Positions 9,919-19,509 are shown, numbered from the stretch's first letter. The stretch is DNA of 64,000 nucleotides from Candidatus Moraniibacteriota bacterium (GCA_016182385.1 JACPGV010000002.1:189190-253189); one strand, 5' to 3'. Program-made: numbers and translations. The notes: a model not told the origin generated them from the sequence alone.

Positions 9919-12900
9919 ATGGATGTGGATGAGAAATCTGTAAGAACAAAAATCTCGAAGTTCAATCAAGAAAGCAACGTGAGCGAATTACTCAGTTTAC
10001 TGAGTGTCACTGATTCTGACTTGGAGAAAATAATATCCTTTATCAATAAATTTATTGATAAAGGATATTTGAAATCGTTTACATTTCTTCCTCTTAAAGT
10101 TACCGATGAATATTTAGTATTTATTAATTCCTCAAATGAGGTTGAGGTGATTGATACGGATACTGTAAGCTTGAGAAAGGCGCTGAATCATATTAAGGCA
10201 TACGATAATAGCAATTTTCAATCTGAAACTGCTAGTTTAGTTTTGCGAAGCGTCCTTCTTGCCGTATCAAAATCAGAGCTCAAGTCTTATGATGTATTTA
10301 CCAGATTTAATACGGAGGTCTCGGATAAGAATACACTGAGACAACTATTGAAGGATGAAAATAATTGGATCGCTGAAAGAAGAGAAATTCAGAAAAATCT
10401 TACAGATTATTTTTATACAAGTGTAGAATCTCTATCACGAAAGATTGCTCATTCAAAACGGATAGAGAAAGGTCTCTACTGTGTTAGGGGACCTATAGCC
10501 TCAGGAAAGTCCTCATTTATTAAGAGCTTGTTAGATCAAAATATAAAGGACATTGAAGGTTTTGATGGTGTACTAAATACTGACGCTGTAAAAAGAAGGT
10601 TTGTATTAAACGCTTCAAATTACACAGGACAGATGCTTTCTGGTTATGTATTTCATGAGGAAGCATCCATTATCGGTGAAAAACTACTTGAAAAAGTTAA
10701 AGAGGCTAATTTTATTTACGTCCTCGATAGGAGAATGCAATCGGTCGATGACCTTGATGAACTTCTGCTTGATGCAGAACGAAGAAACTTGCCAGTTAAT
10801 ATTTTTGATCTAAAAGTTGATTTTATAACATCCGCATTGAGAGTTCTAGAGAGAACAGGTGTGTACCCAAGTGATCCTACACCTGATTTTTTATCACTAT
10901 ACAAAAGTTATAAAAATATAGAGGATTGCAGATTGATTTTCTTAGAGAAATCTTTAGCTTCAAAATTTGTAAAAAATTATTCCACAGTATCCGTTAATAC
11001 TAATGGTGACCCAGTAATCCTCAATCTTAAAAAGAACTATATAGTTAATAAGCAGAACTTAGTTCATGAATCAGAAGCTCGGTATATGTCGAGTATTGAA
11101 AGTTTGAAAAACCTCATTCTTTCAAATGATAAGACGCTTCAAATTACTCTAGACGAGCATTCGCGAAAGGGGCACATTCCTCGGTTATCAAGAAATGAGT
11201 ATCAAGAGGGTCTATTGCGAAATATTAAATGTACAAGTAGGACATTTGATGGAGAGTTAGATGTTTCGGCATCTAAAGATAAGCATAAGATTCTCAACAC
11301 ATCTATTTCAAAGAATGATCTGATAAAGATCACGAAAAATAATATAACAAAAGCTTTTGATTTTGTATATGATAATAAAAACATACCTATATTATCGCCA
11401 CAAGTGCTTAAAGACTTTATTGATCAAATTGCAAGAATTGTAAATCAAGAGATTATAAATGATGAAAAGCTAATAGTAAGAAGCGGAAGTAATTCCCATA
11501 AGTATTTTTATGTAGATACAAAATACGTAGAAAAGTTTTATAAATCATTTGTAAGTCAGTTGTACTATAAGCTTAGTAATCCAGCAGTTAACCCCATAGA
11601 TTTAGCGGCGTGGATTGAATGGAATATAGATTTTTGTGGACATATTTTTAGTGATGGTTGCGGGAGAATTTCAAAAATTTTGAGTACGTGGCTACTGACG
11701 AGATATAATGTTACTTTGCCAAATTATGAAAATGGACAAGATGGATTTGCAACTATTCGAGAATCATACAGAAAGAGATTCGCTATTAAATCGATTATAA
11801 ATCTTCAAATTCCCACTAATACAAAAAGCTTTTACGCTTTCGCAACCTACTATAAGAGATTGTTTGAGCCTAAGAAGACTTATAAGATTCTTGCTTCAGG
11901 CGGGTTAATTTATAATTCAGCGGGTCAGTTCTTAATACTTCAGACTAGTAAGGGTAAGGACTGCGGGAAGTGGGTTGTTCCTGGAGGTAAGCTGGATATC
12001 AATGAAGCTCCAATGGAAGCGTTTGTTCGGGAGGTCTTTGAGGAAACTGGACTTGAGATCAACAATATTCGTTTATTAGGAGTACGTGATTACACAGCAA
12101 AAAGTGGAAACCATTATCATTTTTATGACTATACCTCTTCTGTAATTGATGAAAAAAGAATAAAGATTAACGAGGAGTCCCTCGCTTTTAAGTGGATTAC
12201 GAAAGATCAGATATTAAACTTTACTTTTACGGATTCAATCACAAATTTTATTCATAAATATTTTATTTTTGAATATCTAGATATTTATCAAAAAGTAGTT
12301 AAGATTCCAGATCATAACTTCGACACACCTCATTTAATCGACCATACGATGACAACTTCGCTAGAGAATTATATCAAAAATAAACTACCGATAGATTTGA
12401 TTGATAGTAATCTAAGGATGATAGATAGTTTTGAAATACATGGTATATATCCAGATCTCAATATTTTGAATGAACTGAATCTAGACTTTACTATCACCGA
12501 GGTGCTTCATTCGAGTAAGTTAAAAAAAGACAATAGCAATAGCTTGAGACCGATGTTTTTATTAGGTGAGAGAAATTCAAAGAAGATTTTGATCTGTTGT
12601 GTAACTCCAGGGAGAGACTTACTCATACACTATGCTTCTATGATTAAGTATCATTTAAGAAATTTTCAGATTTCGATAAATGTCTATGCTTATCCTTTGG
12701 CTGAAAAAGATATCGATAAATGGACTGGTCTAGACGAAAAAATGATTATCAAGAATGATATTGTTATTCTTGGCTACAGCACTTTTTTTAAAGATCACTT
12801 TGAAAAAGATTCTGATTTTTCGGTATTAAGTACGTACCAAAACAAGTTTTATTCAGCTACTAGATTTATTTCAAAAAACGGAAAGGTAATAAATTGTCTG

Positions 12901-13455
12901 GAGGCAAACTATGGTCATTGGGGTGATATTAGTGATTTTCTAGCGCAGAAAGTATGTCAGTTGAAAGCACAGGAGATTTTGCATGTAGGAAAAGTGGGTA
13001 CCTTAAAATCTGTAAGTGAAGTATATAAAAGAATATACATACCAAAGTCATTTGTTATAGGTAGAAGAAATGAAATTATGAGCTTAGGCTTAAAGTTAAG
13101 TAATTCTATGGAGTATATAAAAGAGCATTCTTCTTTAGCTCATATTTCTGTAACTACAACAATGGAAGAAACCTTTACTCAGCGTGAACATTTTTCTAAG
13201 CAAAAAGTTCATACGATAGATATCGAATCATCAAAAATTGCTCGTGCAGTTGCTCTATATAATATTACTAACAAGACTAAGATAAAATTTGGAGCAATAC
13301 ATTTCTCTTCAGATTATTTGAAAAAATTAGAGGAGTCAGAGCAGAATGTAGGTATAGATTTATCAACCAATAGAGAGGATTTGAAATATAGAAAGCAAAA
13401 TATACTTAATGAAATCTTTTATATTATTAAGAGGCATATCATTGATAATGGGTAG
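9919..13455 (+). CDS. Multidomain 1178-aa protein: N-terminal unknown domain, zeta-toxin/PNK-like P-loop kinase, Fic/Doc-like domain, Nudix hydrolase domain, and a C-terminal ~380-aa domain possibly nucleosidase-like.
   Basis: Walker A GPIASGKSS (~aa 181). Fic-like HIFSDGCGRISK (~aa 573), close to the Fic core consensus HxFx(D/E)GNGRxxR. Nudix box GGKLDINEAPMEAFVREVFEETGLE (~aa 690). C-terminal ...ILHVGKVGTL... weakly PNP/MTAN-like. About 33% GC. Confidence 0.7.
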   Translation: MDVDEKSVRTKISKFNQESNVSELLSLLSVTDSDLEKIISFINKFIDKGYLKSFTFLPLKVTDEYLVFINSSNEVEVIDTDTVSLRKALNHIKAYDNSNFQSETASLVLRSVLLAVSKSELKSYDVFTRFNTEVSDKNTLRQLLKDENNWIAERREIQKNLTDYFYTSVESLSRKIAHSKRIEKGLYCVRGPIASGKSSFIKSLLDQNIKDIEGFDGVLNTDAVKRRFVLNASNYTGQMLSGYVFHEEASIIGEKLLEKVKEANFIYVLDRRMQSVDDLDELLLDAERRNLPVNIFDLKVDFITSALRVLERTGVYPSDPTPDFLSLYKSYKNIEDCRLIFLEKSLASKFVKNYSTVSVNTNGDPVILNLKKNYIVNKQNLVHESEARYMSSIESLKNLILSNDKTLQITLDEHSRKGHIPRLSRNEYQEGLLRNIKCTSRTFDGELDVSASKDKHKILNTSISKNDLIKITKNNITKAFDFVYDNKNIPILSPQVLKDFIDQIARIVNQEIINDEKLIVRSGSNSHKYFYVDTKYVEKFYKSFVSQLYYKLSNPAVNPIDLAAWIEWNIDFCGHIFSDGCGRISKILSTWLLTRYNVTLPNYENGQDGFATIRESYRKRFAIKSIINLQIPTNTKSFYAFATYYKRLFEPKKTYKILASGGLIYNSAGQFLILQTSKGKDCGKWVVPGGKLDINEAPMEAFVREVFEETGLEINNIRLLGVRDYTAKSGNHYHFYDYTSSVIDEKRIKINEESLAFKWITKDQILNFTFTDSITNFIHKYFIFEYLDIYQKVVKIPDHNFDTPHLIDHTMTTSLENYIKNKLPIDLIDSNLRMIDSFEIHGIYPDLNILNELNLDFTITEVLHSSKLKKDNSNSLRPMFLLGERNSKKILICCVTPGRDLLIHYASMIKYHLRNFQISINVYAYPLAEKDIDKWTGLDEKMIIKNDIVILGYSTFFKDHFEKDSDFSVLSTYQNKFYSATRFISKNGKVINCLEANYGHWGDISDFLAQKVCQLKAQEILHVGKVGTLKSVSEVYKRIYIPKSFVIGRRNEIMSLGLKLSNSMEYIKEHSSLAHISVTTTMEETFTQREHFSKQKVHTIDIESSKIARAVALYNITNKTKIKFGAIHFSSDYLKKLEESEQNVGIDLSTNREDLKYRKQNILNEIFYIIKRHIIDNG

Positions 13456-15026: not shown

Positions 15027-15117
15027 GGAAAGGTGGCCGAGCTGGCTGAAGGCACCACACTGCTAACGTGGCAGGGGATAAAACCCCTCGAGGGTTCGAA
15101 TCCCTCCCTTTCCGCCA
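15027..15117 (+). tRNA. tRNA-Ser (anticodon GCT), type II with encoded CCA.
   Basis: GGAAAGG acceptor, GCC/GGC D-stem, anticodon stem CCACA/CGTGG with loop CTGCTAA, long variable arm AGGGGATAAAACCCCTC, T-arm GAGGG-TTCGAAT-CCCTC, CCTTTCC-G-CCA. Confidence 0.8.
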
Positions 15118-15300
15118 AAATTGAAAATCGGAATCGGAAGCCGAAATGGGGTCGGCGCGAAGCGCCGACACAAAAGCATTCCCGCCAAGAATTCCCGAAT
15201 CCAAAAGGTTTTTCCACGCTCCGCGTGGCTCAAAAAAGACGGTTCGATCCTTAATTTGAAAGTTCGAACCGACTTTTTTGAACAAATGAAGTTTTGCTTC
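15112..15300 (-). repeat. tRNA-Ser(GCT) 3'-flank repeat (att-like, 15112-15149) followed by an inverted copy of repeat family R1 (15158-15290).
   Basis: 15112-15149 recurs at 19472-19509 (33/38 identical). 15158-15290 is the reverse complement of 8524-8620. Internal imperfect palindrome AAAAAGTCGGTTCGAAC...GATCGAACCGTCTTTTTT. Confidence 0.6.
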
Positions 15301-15587
15301 ATTTGTTCCCTCGTTTGCCAATTCCATATTGTATTTCAAAAACTTTTCCGTAAGTTCGAACCGATTATTCGCTTTTTGCTCAAAAGCCGATAATTTCTCT
15401 TTGAGAAGCTGTTTTTCGTTCATTAACTTATTTTTCATATCTCGATATTCTTCAAGCGACAAGGCGTTTTCGAGATAAGCGCTATGATGTAAGCTCCTAT
15501 CTGGACAAGGAGGGCTTTGAGAAAATGAATAGTAAGCTGAAGTAGTCTGAAATTGGAGAGAAGTCCTCTTTATGCTAAAATGGAACT

Positions 15588-17426
15588 ATGTTTGAAAAAC
15601 ACCCCCTCCACATCAAAAACCCAGAACTGCAGAAATCTGCCGATGTTCAGCATGCCGTTGTTCGTGACCAGCGCCACACCGGCGAGAAAATTCCAAATGA
15701 TCCTAAAGATCGTATTGAGGCATATACTGACCGATTGGAAAATATCTTTCTCAACCCTGATAGCCGAGTACGAGAGCGCAATATTGACCTTCTTCGTCCC
15801 AAGATTTACGACAGCCTCATCATCAAGCGAGGGAATTTTCCCGATTCCTACTTTGAACTCCAAAAAAGAGTGGCCAGAGAACAGGGTCACGGTGACATTG
15901 AAATTTCTCAAGAGATGCGAGAGCAGATGATTGATACGGCTATCGCTGATCAAAGGCACTCTCTTGATGCTTGGATTGACTACCTGTCATCCGAAGATGC
16001 TGTCTATCCAGCCTGGTTTAAGTACTACGCGTGGAATCAAATTACCAAGCTTTCCCAGTTTGATAAAGAGCGCGGCGAATTCAAGAAACGCACCGAAAGC
16101 ACGGTCGCTCCTTTTCCAGATATCTACCGCGAACCACTAGCGCAAATGGCCGACCTGTACGAGCGAGTCAAGCAAGATAATAAGGATCCAGAAGCTAGAG
16201 CTGAATTTGATAAAAAATTCCCTAATCTCTACGCTGAACTCATTGTTAAATCCTTAGAGGCCGGAGTGGGGGGTGGGGAAACCATAGAGGGGGCCTGGGT
16301 AAAGTTTGAACAAGGGGAGGAAGGCGCCGCGGAGAAACTTTTTCAGTCGCTTGATGGCCGAGGGACGGGCTGGTGTACCGCTGGGTATTCAACCGCCCAA
16401 ACCCAAATTGAATCCGGAGATTTCTATGTCTATTACACGAATGATAAAGACGGAAACCCAATACAACCAAGACTCGCCATTCGCATGAATGGTGATACTC
16501 AAATCGGAGAAGTAAGAGGAGTGCTCCCGCAACAAAATGTAGAGCCTTTGATGCAAGAAGTATTAGAGGAAAAACTCCAAGCTTTTGGGAAAGAGGCTGA
16601 TGCGTATCATAAGAGGAGTAGCGATATGAAAATGCTGACCGTTCTGGAAAACAAAAAAAAGCAGGGAATACCTTTTGCTAAAGAAGATCTCACTTTCCTA
16701 TACGAAATCAATTCCACCATTGAAGGCTTTGGCTATCAGGAAGATCCACGCATCGCTGAATTACGGGCTGATCGCAATACCGAAAGAGACATGTTAGTAA
16801 TCTTTGATTGTACCCAGGCAGATATTGCCAGAACCCCAAGTGAAATTCGGCCTACAACCAAAGCCTATGTGGGTCAATTAGAGCCAGGCATCTTCCAAAA
16901 ACTCCCAGCTACTCTAGAACACGTCTATACTGCTTTCCCAGAAGGAAAAGTACGAAGGATAGAATCCAAAGTGGGAGGCAAATCTGCTGGTACTCTTCAA
17001 GAAGAATTGGAAGCTGCTCAAATCAATATTGGGGGCTATGCTGAGAGTATGCTCAAAAACAAAAAGGAATTTATTGCTACTCCAGAATTAGAAGAGATGA
17101 CCCTGATTCGTCTTACGGTAGCTGACCTTGGTTTTAAGTCCTCTGCTACTACTGATCAAATTTACAAACGAGCTGAAGAATTAGGACTTGAACTCTGTCC
17201 AAGCGATGTCGGTCCCACGCTCCGTTTACAATACCAAAATCAACCTCTTGGAGAATGGCTGTATATAGGAATGAAACAAATTGCTGACTCTGACGGCAAT
17301 CCCGGCGTTTTCATGCTGGCGCGCGACGGTGGCGGTTTGTGGTTGGACAGCAGTTGGGCGAGGCCTAGCAGCGGGTGGAATCCGGACGGCGGGTTCGTGT
17401 TCCGTCTCCGCAAATCTGAATCTTAG
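15588..17426 (+). CDS. DGR target (variable) protein, 612 aa. C-terminal ~45 aa is encoded by the VR (C-type-lectin/FGE-like ligand-binding fold inferred). N-terminal ~560 aa of unknown function.
   Basis: 3' end 17283-17410 is an adenine-mismatched copy of the TR. C-terminal motif ...GWNPDGGFVFRLR is typical of DGR variable proteins. Confidence 0.8.
   Translation: MFEKHPLHIKNPELQKSADVQHAVVRDQRHTGEKIPNDPKDRIEAYTDRLENIFLNPDSRVRERNIDLLRPKIYDSLIIKRGNFPDSYFELQKRVAREQGHGDIEISQEMREQMIDTAIADQRHSLDAWIDYLSSEDAVYPAWFKYYAWNQITKLSQFDKERGEFKKRTESTVAPFPDIYREPLAQMADLYERVKQDNKDPEARAEFDKKFPNLYAELIVKSLEAGVGGGETIEGAWVKFEQGEEGAAEKLFQSLDGRGTGWCTAGYSTAQTQIESGDFYVYYTNDKDGNPIQPRLAIRMNGDTQIGEVRGVLPQQNVEPLMQEVLEEKLQAFGKEADAYHKRSSDMKMLTVLENKKKQGIPFAKEDLTFLYEINSTIEGFGYQEDPRIAELRADRNTERDMLVIFDCTQADIARTPSEIRPTTKAYVGQLEPGIFQKLPATLEHVYTAFPEGKVRRIESKVGGKSAGTLQEELEAAQINIGGYAESMLKNKKEFIATPELEEMTLIRLTVADLGFKSSATTDQIYKRAEELGLELCPSDVGPTLRLQYQNQPLGEWLYIGMKQIADSDGNPGVFMLARDGGGLWLDSSWARPSSGWNPDGGFVFRLRKSES
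17283..17410 (+). repeat. DGR variable repeat (VR).
   Basis: 128 bp, about 83% identical to the TR. All ~22 mismatches fall at TR adenines. Shared 3' GC-rich IMH-like end CGTGTTCCGTCTCCG. Confidence 0.85.
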
Positions 17427-17769
17427 AAACTTTGTTTCTTTGTCTTAATTTTTCTTTTGACCCTTGGACTCTTTGATACTTTGGACTTTAGTCTTTTAGC
17501 GGCGTAGCCGCTTGGCGCGATTTTTTTGCTATACTGATTGCAAGCTGGTTACATTGAACGGTTACGGCTTTTCGAGACCAGCCCGGCTCATGTGGATTGA
17601 GAGCGTGGACGGCTACGGTTTTCCACGGAGGATACGCATGCAGTCAACAAAAAAGAAACACTTGGTGCGACACACTGGCTGATTTTCGATCAGAGTTAAA
17701 ATACAGCACGACCTCTGGCATTTCATGCGCTTAGGTCGGCAGTGATCTAGATGGCGTGCCGCACAAAAA

Positions 17770-17897
17770 GCTGACTCTGACGGCAATCCCAACGTTTTCA
17801 AGCTGGAACGCAACGATGACGGTTTGTGGTTGAACAACAATTGGGCGAAGCCTAACAACGAGTGGAATCCGAACAACAAGTTCGTGTTCCGTCTCCG
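17770..17897 (+). repeat. DGR template repeat (TR).
   Basis: Contains 10 AAC (Asn) codons in the target frame. The corresponding VR codons are GGC/GAC/AGC/CGC etc. Confidence 0.85.
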
Positions 17898-17917
17898 AAA
17901 CTGCTTTCTTTCCGCAG

Positions 17918-18241
17918 CTATGTGTTGCGGTTTTTCTTTTCAGGGTTGTCGAGATTCTTCTTCCAGCCACCGAACATGCGGCCAATCTCTTCAAGTTTTG
18001 AGGAAACATTCTCACAGTGGGCGTTTGAAATGAGCTTGCCTTCCCAGGCAACTGAAACGAGAAACTTCAGCGTATCAAGAAGGAGGATACATTCAGAAAT
18101 CTTTTCAGCCTTTTTCTCTTTTTCGGTAAAGTAGGCAGCGTAGGAAAGTTCGAGTAAATCAAGAAACCTATTTTCAATGCGAGAGCCTATCGTATATCTC
18201 GCCCCTTTAGAAATATGCGGAACAATATTCACCCAAATCAA
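17918..18241 (-). CDS. Avd-like accessory variability determinant (four-helix-bundle, 23S rRNA IVS protein family). Antisense to TR and RT.
   Basis: 107 aa. C-terminal ...KFLVSVAWEGKLISNAHCENVSSKLEEIGRMFGGWKKNL resembles the IVS/Avd consensus (...EIGKML.GLIK.L). Basic. Confidence 0.5.
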   Translation of the reverse strand: MIWVNIVPHISKGARYTIGSRIENRFLDLLELSYAAYFTEKEKKAEKISECILLLDTLKFLVSVAWEGKLISNAHCENVSSKLEEIGRMFGGWKKNLDNPEKKNRNT

Positions 18242-18267
18242 ATAGCCCTCTTTGATACGAGCGAGGA

Positions 18268-19326
18268 TTGTGGCCTTCGTATTTCCGAGCGAAGCTCGGG
18301 GGGGGGGGTGAAAACAGGTGCAGTCATATCTACCATGATATCATTTCTGTGGATAACTTGCTCTCGGCCTGGCGCGAGTTTCTCAAAGATAAACGCCGTC
18401 GTAAGGATATTGAACGGTTTGCGCTTCACCTGACCGATAATGTCCTTTCGCTTCACAAGGATCTTACCGACAAAACCTATAAGCATGGCTCGTATCGAGC
18501 TTTTCGGATTAACGACCCGAAGCCACGAGATATTCATAAGGCATCGGTTCGAGACCGACTTCTGCACCATGCGATCTATCGGGTCTTGTATCCCTACTTC
18601 GATCCCAAGTTTATTTTCGACTCCTATTCCTGCCGCCGTGCTAAAGGCACACACCGGGCTATCAATCGCTTTCGGGACTATGCTCGCAAGGTTTCACAAA
18701 ATCATACACGCACCGCTTGGGTTCTCAAGTGTGACATTAGGAAGTTTTTTGCTAACATCGATCACAAAATTCTGGAAGATATCCTGAGGCACCGCATCGG
18801 AGATGGAGAGGTAGTATCGCTTCTGGGCGAAGTAGTAGGAAGCTTTCATACGAAAGACAATCCCGCTGTCGGGCTGCCCCTTGGCAACCTTACGAGCCAG
18901 CTTCTGGTGAACATCTATATGAATGAGTTCGATCACTTTGTGAAGCGGGAATTGAAAGCCGCCTACTACATTAGGTATGCAGATGACTTCGTAATCTTGC
19001 ATGAAGACAAGGAGTATTTGGAAAAGCTTTTGCCCAAGATAGCAGCGTATCTGGCAGCCCGGCTTAGGCTGTCGCTCCACCCGAACAAGGTATTCATAAA
19101 GACGATTGCCTCGGGCGTTGATTTCTTAGGCTGGGTGCATTTTCCGTATCATCGGGTACCAAGAACCTCCACCAAAAAAAGAATGTTCAGAAACCTCAAT
19201 CAGAAGCAGACGGAAGCCACCGTGGCCTCATATCTCGGCCTCCTGAGCCATGGGAACACCTATGGCCTAGCTGAGAAGGTAAAGAGAAGTCTTCCCGAAA
19301 ATTCGAGCGAAAAGGCTACCTTTTGA
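18268..19326 (+). CDS. DGR reverse transcriptase.
   Basis: RT domains with YADD (IRYADDFVIL) and DGR-specific motif LPLGNLTSQ, which replaces QGxxxSP. About 350 aa, no maturase/endonuclease domain. Start uncertain: TTG at 18268 or GTG at 18349. Confidence 0.85.
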   Translation: MWPSYFRAKLGGGGENRCSHIYHDIISVDNLLSAWREFLKDKRRRKDIERFALHLTDNVLSLHKDLTDKTYKHGSYRAFRINDPKPRDIHKASVRDRLLHHAIYRVLYPYFDPKFIFDSYSCRRAKGTHRAINRFRDYARKVSQNHTRTAWVLKCDIRKFFANIDHKILEDILRHRIGDGEVVSLLGEVVGSFHTKDNPAVGLPLGNLTSQLLVNIYMNEFDHFVKRELKAAYYIRYADDFVILHEDKEYLEKLLPKIAAYLAARLRLSLHPNKVFIKTIASGVDFLGWVHFPYHRVPRTSTKKRMFRNLNQKQTEATVASYLGLLSHGNTYGLAEKVKRSLPENSSEKATF

Positions 19327-19471: not shown

Positions 19472-19509
19472 CCGCCAAAATTGGAAATCGGAATCAGAAG
19501 TCGAGATGA
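19472..19509 (+). repeat. Distal direct repeat of the tRNA-Ser(GCT) 3' end plus flank (attR-like).
   Basis: 33/38 identity with 15112-15149, including CCGCCA (acceptor end, discriminator, CCA). Confidence 0.55.

Follow-up and report, generated by a model that had tools for sequence, protein, structure and literature searches.

The prototype diversity-generating retroelement (DGR), that of BPP-1, comprises mtd with its VR, avd, the TR, and brt, and the TR is followed on its 3′ side by a 140-nt Sp region (Handa et al., 10.1101/2023.10.23.563531). A different arrangement, designated architecture B3, has the order TR-(avd)-RT with avd on the reverse strand and belongs to the CPR set, according to the accessible text of Wu et al. 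(2018, PMC5758913). In addition, DGR clade 2 has been described as restricted to the CPR (Roux et al. 2021, PMC8144416).

The locus examined herein (Table 1) lies in a 64-kb stretch of DNA, which is called the window. We regard it, with a probability of about 0.85, as a genuine CPR-specific TR-(avd)-RT DGR in a Candidatus Moranbacteria genome. Its identity as a DGR, proposed in an earlier note on the same DNA, is favored because the repeats differ at TR adenines only, the nearest relative of the RT among solved structures is that of the Bordetella phage, an Avd is present, and the target protein has a predicted C-type-lectin (CLec) C-terminus. Other resemblances to BPP-1 include adenine-specific transfer from TR to VR, placement of the VR at the C-terminus of a predicted CLec fold, a TR embedded in a longer structured RNA, and repeats that end in a common GC-rich IMH-like sequence with differing downstream flanks. 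In contrast to BPP-1, avd has the reverse orientation and shares an overlap of 5′ coding ends with the RT gene, the large RNA domain (220 nt, five covarying helices) is located 5′ of the TR, and an array of motifs with an 8-nt period takes the place of a GC hairpin after the IMH. In the BPP-1 RNA, which runs from the avd 3′ end through the TR into Sp, a long structured spacer on the 3′ side of the TR binds RT and Avd and provides the primer. Such a spacer is absent here, where about 45 nt lead from the TR to a hairpin and T-run and then to antisense avd. Furthermore, the host is cellular, the target lacks a signal peptide or known domain, and a simple-sequence (SSR) tract lies within the enzyme genes.

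Likenesses to B3 elements extend to gene order (TR, reverse-strand avd, RT), a Patescibacteria host, a target in which no conserved or transmembrane domain is recognizable, and a cellular element. Because nothing differs at the level described in CPR and DGR surveys, we regard the element as a B3 member. A possible membership in clade 2, a group defined by position in the global RT tree, is consistent with the host taxonomy (Moranbacteria/Patescibacteria annotations) and the cellular context. Wu et al. (2018, PMC5758913) do not use the word “promoter” in the accessible main text, nor do they mention an SSR, a 5′ leader RNA, or a periodic array there. Likewise, we did not find the ~400-nt TR RNA, the junction SSR, the 8-nt array, or tRNA-integrating islets described in the accessible part of the DGR literature.

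Table 1. Features of the locus, in window coordinates.
Feature	Position	Strand	Remarks
Left 37-nt direct repeat	15112..15148	+	Overlaps 3′ end of tRNA-Ser(GCT), 15027-15117
DGR target gene, 612 aa	15588..17426	+	ORF; without Pfam domain
VR	17276..17410	+	22 differences from TR, all at TR adenines
IMH-like VR 3′ end	17396..17410	+	A-free, GC-rich; same 15-mer closes TR (17883-17897)
CTT(T)RG motif array, 8-nt period	17422..17492	+	Directly 3′ of VR and stop codon
Extended -10 promoter of TR RNA, TTTTTTTGCTATACT	17521..17535	+	Assigned by conservation
Structured conserved 5′ leader of TR RNA	17541..17762	+	Covariation
Leader helix P1	17547-17579	+	Covariation
Leader helix P2	17589-17640	+	Covariation
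A-rich strand of leader	17648-17659	+	
Leader helix P3	17665-17676 with 17750-17764	+	Covariation
Leader helix P4	17679-17693	+	Covariation
Leader helix P5	17704-17742	+	Covariation
TR	17763..17897	+	5′ end adjoins base of helix P3
TR RNA 3′ trailer	17898..17940	+	Overlaps avd 3′ end
Trailer, U-rich tract	17898-17911		
Trailer, GC hairpin	17912-17930		CCGCAGC..GTTGCGG
Trailer, T-run	17931-17940		
avd (accessory variability determinant)	17918..18268	-	116-codon body and stop; between TR and RT
Distal ATG, putative RT start	18215..18217	+	Antisense of avd His18; in RT frame only at G12 or G9
Poly-G(11) simple-sequence tract	18298..18308	.	In the antisense overlap between the avd and RT 5′ coding ends
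Putative avd promoter and start	18325..18343	-	Extended -10 TGATATCAT, 18343->18335; ATG, 18327->18325
RT body, His20 to stop codon	18325..19326	+	Pfam RVT_1 5.6e-23; PHROG RT 5e-111
LGNLTSQ motif of RT	18880-18900	+	
YADD motif of RT	18976-18987	+	
Right 37-nt direct repeat	19472-19508		89% identical to left copy

Ungapped comparison of VR 17283-17410 with TR 17770-17897 (128 bp, offset 487) yields 20 mismatches and 84.4% identity. All 20 fall on TR adenines (A>G at 18 sites, A>T at one, and A>C at one), of which there are 35 among the 128 bases of the TR core (hypergeometric p=2.7e-14). Extension of the repeat on its 5′ side to 17276/17763 adds two A>T differences for a total of 22 of 22 at TR adenines, and a repeat finder independently delimited 17276-17413 and 17763-17900 at 83% identity. 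These results bear out earlier claims of ~83% identity and of mismatches only at TR adenines, while the claimed ~22 mismatches hold for the extended repeat and not for the 128-bp limits given with them. Ten AAC codons had also been reported in the TR, but we count eight, every one of which is altered in the VR. Seventeen codons differ between the repeats, all nonsynonymously, and affect target residues 565-602 of 612; TR adenines number 15, 22, and 3 at codon positions 1, 2, and 3, respectively. The window holds no further VR. Because no non-adenine difference occurs in 135 bp, the last homing event was probably recent. In 40 related TR/VR pairs, each 90 nt or longer, there are 811 differences, in runs of up to 140 nt, whose adenine-only status follows by construction from the wildcard match used to find them.

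As the earlier note stated, both repeats end in the same GC-rich sequence, an identical A-free 15-mer (CGTGTTCCGTCTCCG). Directly after it, the VR continues with C and the TR with A (CCGCAA vs. CCGAAA), and this distinction is fixed in most of 49 related TR/VR pairs. Thus, a putative IMH at the VR end appears to be matched by a non-identical IMH* at the TR end.

The best PDB match for the RT is the Bordetella phage DGR RT (bRT; 8ub7_A, E=9e-40, 140 bits), and the best group II or retron-type RT in the same search reaches 79 bits, 60 below bRT. In the alignment, LGNLTSQ corresponds to IGSLTSQ and YADD to YMDD of bRT. The two motifs, both reported previously, conform to [I/L/V]GxxxSQ and YxDD and, together with the PDB match, indicate that the enzyme probably belongs to the DGR clade rather than with the group II or retron RTs. 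The body of 333 codons contains zero internal stops.

These data leave it highly implausible that the repeats are an ordinary segmental duplication or gene-conversion tract with a chance adenine bias beside a group II intron or retron RT. The top NCBIfam RT model by score is group_II_RT_mat, which speaks for such an origin, although its 155.6 bits are well under the 300-bit cut-off. We reject this reading given the hypergeometric probability, the superiority of bRT over every group II or retron RT, the presence of Avd, and the lack of any group II intron or retron RNA in an Rfam search; the same A-only pattern in the 40 related loci also disagrees with it, within the limit imposed by the wildcard match.

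The target protein has zero Pfam, PHROG, or PADLOC matches, and we found no signal peptide, recognizable transmembrane segment, or known or conserved domain. Judging by its homologues, of which there are at least 1438 and most share 66-72% identity along the full length, it is a member of a highly conserved Patescibacteria family, and a Candidatus Moranbacteria MAG has an annotated protein with 100% identity to it. Structure prediction gives a confident model of a CLec fold for the C-terminus, in agreement with the expectation of the earlier note that this region would be CLec/FGE-like. Being located at the 3′ end of this ORF, the VR is therefore predicted to reside in one of the variation-tolerant folds (C-type lectin or Ig). 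Unlike Treponema denticola TvpA and other FGE-type CLec targets, to which it is only ~13% identical in sequence, the protein has no Pfam FGE-sulfatase or DUF1566 match. The CTT(T)RG motifs beyond the stop codon occur at 3.9 per 100 nt compared to 0.54 in shuffles, and of the 133 intervals between them in 46 loci, 75 measure exactly 8 nt, irrespective of the sequence downstream. This array may be a cis element of the target site.

Conservation across related loci suggests that the TR resides in its own RNA of about 400 nt, lineage-wide, with a strongly covarying 220-nt 5′ leader. A two-hexamer sigma-70 scan revealed no promoter for this RNA, and so the assignment of the extended -10 element derives from conservation: TGnTAnnnT is present in 37 of 50 loci, and in 31 its distance to the conserved leader GGTT is constant at 11 nt. 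For the leader, RNAalifold and pair counts over 45 loci give 56 pairs with 96.5% of cells paired, whereas slide controls give ~40%; 41 of the pairs show changes on both sides. The many conserved G:U pairs indicate that the plus strand is the one that folds. No Rfam family matches the leader.

At the other end, the trailer looks like an intrinsic terminator. Its hairpin and T-run match a terminator scan, the hairpin is conserved with covarying arms, TTTTTCTTTT is invariant, and in 37 of 51 loci a T-run comes after a perfect stem of 5 bp or more. In BPP-1-type RNA, sequences on either side of the TR form a duplex (the “cPRT Stop” duplex) and a stem-loop lies just 3′ of the TR; of these, the stem-loop is present here. 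For the duplex, a helix between the A-rich strand of the leader and the U-rich strand of the trailer is predicted in one alignment and absent from another, and both strands are of low complexity, which speaks against this part of the RNA model. Their lengths correlate (rho 0.49), and duplex extension differs between cognate and non-cognate pairs (p=0.015).

The Avd-like gene said to lie downstream is indeed there, but on the minus strand and thus not co-oriented with its neighbors. It scores 50.1 bits against Pfam bAvd (cut-off 40), 61 bits against NCBIfam DivGenRetAVD (cut-off 80; profile positions 3-104), and 3e-17 against the PHROG family “Avd protein of DGR.” About 80 loci share the conserved TR-(avd)-RT module, and the minus-strand position of avd between TR and RT is kept in all related loci having that flank. 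An extended -10 motif for avd is present in 70 of 76 loci, with an ATG exactly 7 nt past it in 59 of those 70, which would give a leaderless mRNA from this putative promoter. In support of this promoter, RT codon I25 is ATC in 69 of 75 loci compared to 29% elsewhere in the RT gene. The 7-nt spacing, however, is forced by RT coding and so is not independent evidence. Codon 1 of the avd body (Ile1) is ATT, ATC, or ATA in 74 of 76 loci. Upstream of it, Ala-Ser/Thr is conserved with synonymous variation, which argues that avd coding reaches beyond Ile1.

The 37-nt direct repeats are presumed att sites of an islet that bears the cassette. DNA similarity to other loci is restricted to 15550-19313, and analogous repeats and tRNAs flank the cassette at three other loci (L002, L004, and L039). 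We propose that the cassette of this lineage travels on tRNA-integrating serine-recombinase islets; in the window, a recombinase fragment of ~115 codons without significant similarity is left. Close relatives number more than 565 in metagenome contigs compared to one in IMG/VR, from which we conclude that the element is cellular rather than viral.

The avd and RT genes run divergently from a junction of 56 nt, and across the G11 tract the two 5′ coding ends overlap in antisense. SSR contingency loci of Haemophilus, Neisseria, and Campylobacter likewise carry a homopolymer or dinucleotide tract in the 5′ coding region, where every third length keeps the frame, and tract length there also varies between otherwise identical sequences. 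They differ in that here one tract is common to two antisense-overlapping genes, the gated genes would form a mutagenesis machine rather than a surface antigen, and the arrangement is known from sequence alone. As assembled, G11 leaves both genes out of frame and neither has a canonical start in frame with its conserved body, so that the element, previously called complete, has all defining parts but not these starts. The mechanically called RT ORF begins at TTG 18268, the only start available in the assembly, with a poorly spaced SD, and the sole canonical ATG upstream of the uninterrupted avd body is out of frame. A length of G12 or G9 brings both genes back, and with one extra G in the window, avd encodes a complete protein of 136 aa beginning MTAPVF. 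The homopolymer may be misassembled.

We infer, with odds somewhat better than even, that tract length governs a joint on/off switch of avd and RT. All 81 homopurine SSRs, either poly-G or (GA)n, in 691 kb are at the avd/RT junction, and where the 400-nt flanks agree at 100%, the loci differ in nothing but the length of the tract. In four sets (L075/L077, L047/L049/L050, L027/L028, and L055/L064), flanks of 99.8-100% identity accompany unequal tract lengths. The tract appears to separate conserved ATGs from both gene bodies: avd His18 is CAT in 66 of 66 loci, which fixes the distal RT ATG, and RT His20 is CAT in 64 of 64, which fixes the avd ATG, each against a 60% background. Codons that would create antisense stops are avoided in avd (Leu TTA/CTA 1/153 vs. 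18.8% background; Ser TCA 2/118 vs. 24.9%), and in 65 of 68 loci the antisense ORF from the distal ATG reaches the SSR without a stop. Synonymous entropy in avd relative to expectation is 0.47 for codons 1-19 and 0.83 for codons 20-60, with the step at codon 18/19 coinciding with the antisense ATG. Moreover, ~60% of loci, the window included, lack any start codon in the stretch from the SSR to the RT body, and the frame is intact in L086, L093, and L100, loci that have no SSR. Against a switch, junction length modulo 3 is distributed 24:32:20 among 76 loci, such that the 24 in-frame cases show no enrichment over chance; no RT promoter was identified when one was sought; and in ~40% of loci an ATG, GTG, or TTG follows closely on the 3′ side of the tract. 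An RT begun at that proximal start would have 10 residues before the aligned IxxxxNLL stretch compared to about 8 in bRT, and therefore may not need the distal ATG.

Those last observations lend themselves to another explanation, which we consider the less likely one, wherein the tract is a purine-rich Shine-Dalgarno or 5′-UTR element for the RT, or forms H-DNA between divergent promoters, and drifts neutrally in length. RT would then be made from the proximal start and Avd from a non-canonical codon such as AUU or AUC at Ile1. This would account for tract purines always being on the RT sense strand and, in the loci with proximal starts, directly 5′ of them, for the bRT-like length of the N-terminus, for the near-invariant isoleucine codon of avd, and for junction lengths at chance. 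It does not accommodate the majority of loci that lack a post-tract start, the avd coding that extends past Ile1, or the fixed distal ATGs with their avoided antisense stops and a constraint that ends exactly at the antisense ATG; nor would a neutral UTR hold an ORF of 30-40 codons open in nearly every locus. It is improbable, in turn, that the element is a decaying relic, with a footprint of past activity and with avd and RT now frameshifted pseudogenes on an immobilized islet. The missing in-frame canonical avd start and the recombinase fragment would fit decay, as would a 1-nt difference that deprives the RT post-tract region of the TTG start seen in locus L001. Yet the repeats carry no non-adenine difference, the avd and RT bodies are free of internal stops, and slippage by a single G restores both genes. 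Because two thirds of otherwise intact relatives share out-of-frame states, the pattern fits reversible phase states better than independent decay.

In the mechanism that we propose, a non-coding RNA of about 400 nt would be transcribed from its own extended -10 element and consist of the 220-nt leader, the 135-nt TR, the U-rich trailer, and a terminator-like hairpin. By homology to the BPP-1 DGR, RT and Avd would bind this RNA, and RT would copy the TR from its A-free 3′ end, misincorporate opposite template adenines, and halt where P3 adjoins the TR 5′ end. The cDNA would then take the place of the VR at the target gene's 3′ end, with the common IMH-like 15-mer as guide. Under the switch model, RT would be translated from ATG 18215 and Avd from the leaderless ATG 18327. 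Since both are read through one slippage-prone tract, they would be switched together, with G11 as the OFF state for both genes and G12 or G9 as the ON state. The out-of-frame state of both genes at this unstable G tract suggests an undescribed on/off switch for hypermutation.

The 3′ end of the 612-aa target gene and a second copy downstream of it (17283-17410 versus 17770-17897) align ungapped with an offset of 487 nt throughout, and 20 of the 128 positions differ. All 20 differences are located at adenines of the downstream copy, the template repeat (TR), where the variable repeat (VR) carries G in 18 cases and T or C in one case each (hypergeometric probability 2.7e-14, given 35 adenines in 128 bases). 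The earlier note had described this 128-bp pair with about 22 mismatches, a number reached only when the homology is extended 5′ to positions 17276/17763, which adds two A>T changes; a repeat finder reports 17276-17413 and 17763-17900 at 83% identity. Both repeats end in the same A-free sequence, CGTGTTCCGTCTCCG, as that note had proposed for an IMH-like segment. When TR is read in frame, each of its eight AAC codons (ten had been counted) is changed in VR, and the 17 codons that differ between the repeats are all nonsynonymous. The TR adenines are distributed 15/22/3 over codon positions 1, 2, and 3, such that nearly all occupy the first two. An adenine-wildcard search of both strands found no further VR in the window.

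The adenine-only footprint recurs in 40 TR/VR pairs of relatives, which carry 466 A>G, 188 A>T, and 157 A>C changes. These pairs were matched with adenine wildcards instead of plain local alignments, which ran into the flanks and produced spurious mismatches at other bases. The spectrum of the window VR is A>G-heavy by comparison (18/20 versus 57%, or 466/811, in relatives; binomial p = 0.002). This skew could derive from a misincorporation preference of the reverse transcriptase (RT) or from selection for Gly, Asp, or Ser codons.

The ORF ending at 19326 codes for a reverse transcriptase (Pfam RVT_1) whose closest solved relative is bRT, the RT of the Bordetella phage BPP-1 diversity-generating retroelement (DGR) (8ub7_A; E = 8.8e-40, 140 bits), compared to 79 bits for the top-scoring RT of group II or retron type. 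The LGNLTSQ segment aligns with IGSLTSQ of bRT, the NCBIfam group II model scores far under its cut-off, and a search of Rfam returned no intron or retron RNA, with no match that reached the gathering threshold and nothing but noise among hits ranked by E-value. The DGR-type RT proposed previously is consistent with these results. The Avd homologue is likewise real (Pfam bAvd over its cut-off; NCBIfam, 61 bits; PHROG “Avd protein of DGR,” 3e-17), but its gene is encoded on the minus strand between TR and RT rather than being a co-oriented downstream gene. Inversion of an avd segment was considered and rejected, given that convincing flanking inverted repeats are lacking and avd is reversed in every locus. 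None of the outcomes that the earlier note had listed as arguing against a DGR, among them mismatches spread over all four TR bases, was found.

CPR genomes are rich in DGRs. Relatives of RT number more than 565; 19 loci from genomes and 80 from metagenomes formed our comparison set. In those comparison loci that include the flank, the TR(+)-avd(-)-RT(+) unit is always kept. Relative to the target, its placement and orientation differ between loci, and two targets are found in some. This order corresponds to architecture B3, “TR-(avd)-RT,” of Wu et al. (2018, PMC5758913), and CPR DGRs have been described as a cellular clade with targets that carry no recognizable domains (Roux et al. 2021, PMC8144416). 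Only one close relative was found among IMG/VR viral contigs. Because the order is already catalogued and CPR DGRs are already described, the element belongs, as a DGR, to a known kind and is ordinary in this respect; judging by its sequence, it is apparently a recently active DGR of the known CPR type. From evidence across the lineage, we infer three further features, namely a tract-gated RT/Avd pair, a family of 5′-leader RNAs, and a periodic target-site array.

Features of the DGR cassette (window positions)
Feature	Position	Strand	Remark
Direct repeat, 37 nt	15112-15148 and 19472-19508		Brackets cassette; left copy overlaps 3′ end of tRNA-Ser(GCT), 15027-15117
Target gene	15588-17426	plus	VR at 3′ end
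VR	17276-17410		
CTT(T)RG array	17422-17492		Directly after VR and stop codon; 8-nt period
Extended -10 of TR RNA	17521-17535		TGnTATACT
5′ leader	17541-17762		
TR	17763-17897		
Putative TR-RNA terminator	17912-17940		
avd	17918-18268	minus	Between TR and RT
Poly-G tract, G11	18298-18308		At avd/RT junction

The divergent avd and RT genes leave 36-90 nt between their first conserved codons, and about 70 of the 76 distinct loci have a poly-G (8-18) or (GA)n (4-18) tract in this junction. The 691 kb of window plus related loci contain 81 tracts of this type, each located at the avd/RT junction, and more distant DGRs have no tract there. Where loci share 100% identical 400-nt flanks, they differ solely in tract length. 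Opposite RT codons 23-26, the avd strand of 70/76 loci carries an extended -10 (TGATATYAT), and the RT Ile25 codon is ATC in 69/75, versus 29% elsewhere. An ATG antisense to RT His20 (CAT in 64/64) follows this -10 by exactly 7 nt in 59/70. This arrangement fits a leaderless avd mRNA in which the tract would encode (Leu-Ser)n or Pro-n. On the RT strand, for which no conserved -10 or promoter was found, an ATG antisense to avd His18 (CAT in 66/66, versus a 60% background) opens an ORF beginning MRNNIHPNQ, which 65/68 loci keep free of stops as far as the tract. In avd, codons that would place a stop on the RT strand are rare (Leu TTA/CTA, 1/153 versus 18.8%; Ser TCA, 2/118 versus 24.9%), and avd synonymous variability is 0.47 of expectation over codons 1-19 and normal from codon 20 (0.83; p = 3e-5). 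Each ATG is in register with the codons of the other gene, so the two ORFs connect with the gene bodies at identical tract lengths.

We infer that avd and RT may share a translational phase switch, wherein slippage in one tract within the antisense-overlapping 5′ coding regions would turn both genes on or off together, heritably and reversibly. Since this single tract is inside both 5′ coding regions, slippage would switch the whole hypermutation machine. Several observations weigh against such a switch. In-frame states (junction length mod 3 = 0) are not enriched, being present in 24/76 loci; a start codon is also present just past the tract in about 40% of loci; and no RT promoter was found. 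Homopolymer lengths in assemblies, including the G11 call in the window, are uncertain. Loci L086, L100, and L093, which have no tract, are in frame. With G11, avd and RT of the window are both out of frame, and one added G would yield a 136-aa Avd and fuse the ATG at 18215 to RT. The components of the “complete” DGR of the earlier note are all present, but an in-frame canonical start is missing from both enzyme genes as assembled. Overall, we assign a probability of roughly 0.55 to the reading that the RT/avd tract makes this machinery a phase-variable mutator of one protein and that the RNA domain organizing reverse transcription has been relocated from the 3′ side of TR to a 220-nt 5′ leader, which would constitute a new RNA family.

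The TR resides in an RNA of about 400 nt (17521-17940) with its own apparent promoter and terminator. Of 50 loci, 37 have the extended -10 upstream of TR, in 31 with a fixed spacing to downstream conserved sequence, and the region of about 220 nt that follows is conserved in every arrangement. A two-hexamer sigma-70 scan of 17300-18700 returned nothing, and the promoters called here are therefore solely conserved extended -10 motifs. Analysis of 45 loci by RNAalifold and explicit pair counts gave 56 pairs in eight helices, with 96.5% of cells paired and changes on both sides of 41 pairs; the covariation score is 0.57, versus 0.09-0.14 when partners are slid by one to three columns. The strand of the leader RNA is settled because conserved G:U pairs are abundant. 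The 220-nt leader has five helices (P1-P5), with the apical motif ACGG-YUAC-GGYUUU in both P1 and P2, and the 3′ strand of P3 stops exactly where TR/VR homology starts. A search of Rfam with the leader RNA found no matching family.

On the 3′ side of TR, a U-rich tract is followed by a GC hairpin with covarying arms and then by an invariant T-run. The hairpin and T-run have the form of an intrinsic terminator and overlap the final codons of avd (17918-17950), which is encoded on the opposite strand. There is no obvious avd terminator, and therefore avd transcripts may read antisense into TR. There is weak evidence that an A-rich leader strand pairs with the U-rich trailer, and in a second leader-to-hairpin helix cognate pairs are marginally better than noncognate ones (p = 0.015, a value not corrected for phylogeny). 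RT and Avd of the Bordetella element are enveloped by RNA located 3′ of TR (Handa et al., 10.1101/2023.10.23.563531). In contrast, the large structured RNA domain is 5′ of TR in the lineage examined herein.

Beyond VR, this lineage carries the CTT(T)RG array and has no conserved GC hairpin like that of the Bordetella DGR. In the 100 nt past VR there are 3.9 copies per locus, versus 0.54 in shuffles (46 loci), and 75 of 133 intervals are exactly 8 nt. The array, which was detected by counting motif spacings and was missed by Tandem Repeats Finder and a fixed-spacing pattern, is kept whatever follows downstream. It may serve in target-site recognition.

DNA similarity to other loci is limited to 15550-19313. 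Related cassettes adjoin tRNAs and have flanking direct repeats in loci L002, L004, and L039, adjoin intact large serine recombinases (Resolvase, Recombinase, and Zn-ribbon domains) in L013 and L086, and are accompanied by recombinase homologues or fragments in L004, L040, and L054. These observations suggest that the cassette is an integrative islet of roughly 4-5.5 kb whose recombinase was lost in the window. A minus-strand fragment at 15118-15462 is a weak lead for a recombinase remnant, as it has no Pfam or PHROG match and aligns with an intact islet recombinase by BLASTP only at E = 0.12. Elsewhere in the window, an ORF of 1178 aa (9919-13455) has markedly lower G+C (about 29-38% versus about 45% nearby), contains Zeta-toxin/AAA-like and NUDIX domains, and matches PADLOC candidate PDC-S07; the gene could be foreign or have a role in defense.

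The annotation of a Candidatus Moranbacteria MAG includes a protein identical to the target, and more than 1400 homologues, mostly 66-72% identical, are found in Patescibacteria. The target matches no family in Pfam, NCBIfam, PHROG, or PADLOC, and profile search found no PDB sequence relative. A resemblance to PcfJ-like domains was unsupported when checked, and the full-length model is poor (pLDDT 60), with weak GNAT-like matches only. Six loci (L005-L008, L011, and L012) carry full-length target homologues with an IMH-like end and the periodic array, and RT and avd are absent within 6 kb. These homologues may be diversified in trans or orphaned. The target family, which is cytoplasmic and about 70% conserved across CPR classes, offers an attractive entry to CPR biology.

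The covarying 5′ leader provides a second natural RNA scaffold beside the single solved Bordetella RNP, with functional elements on the other side of the template. If the tract gates RT and Avd, then most assembled genotypes are “off,” and such gating would be a simple and testable answer to the question of how DGR activity is controlled in cells for a lineage with hundreds of members.
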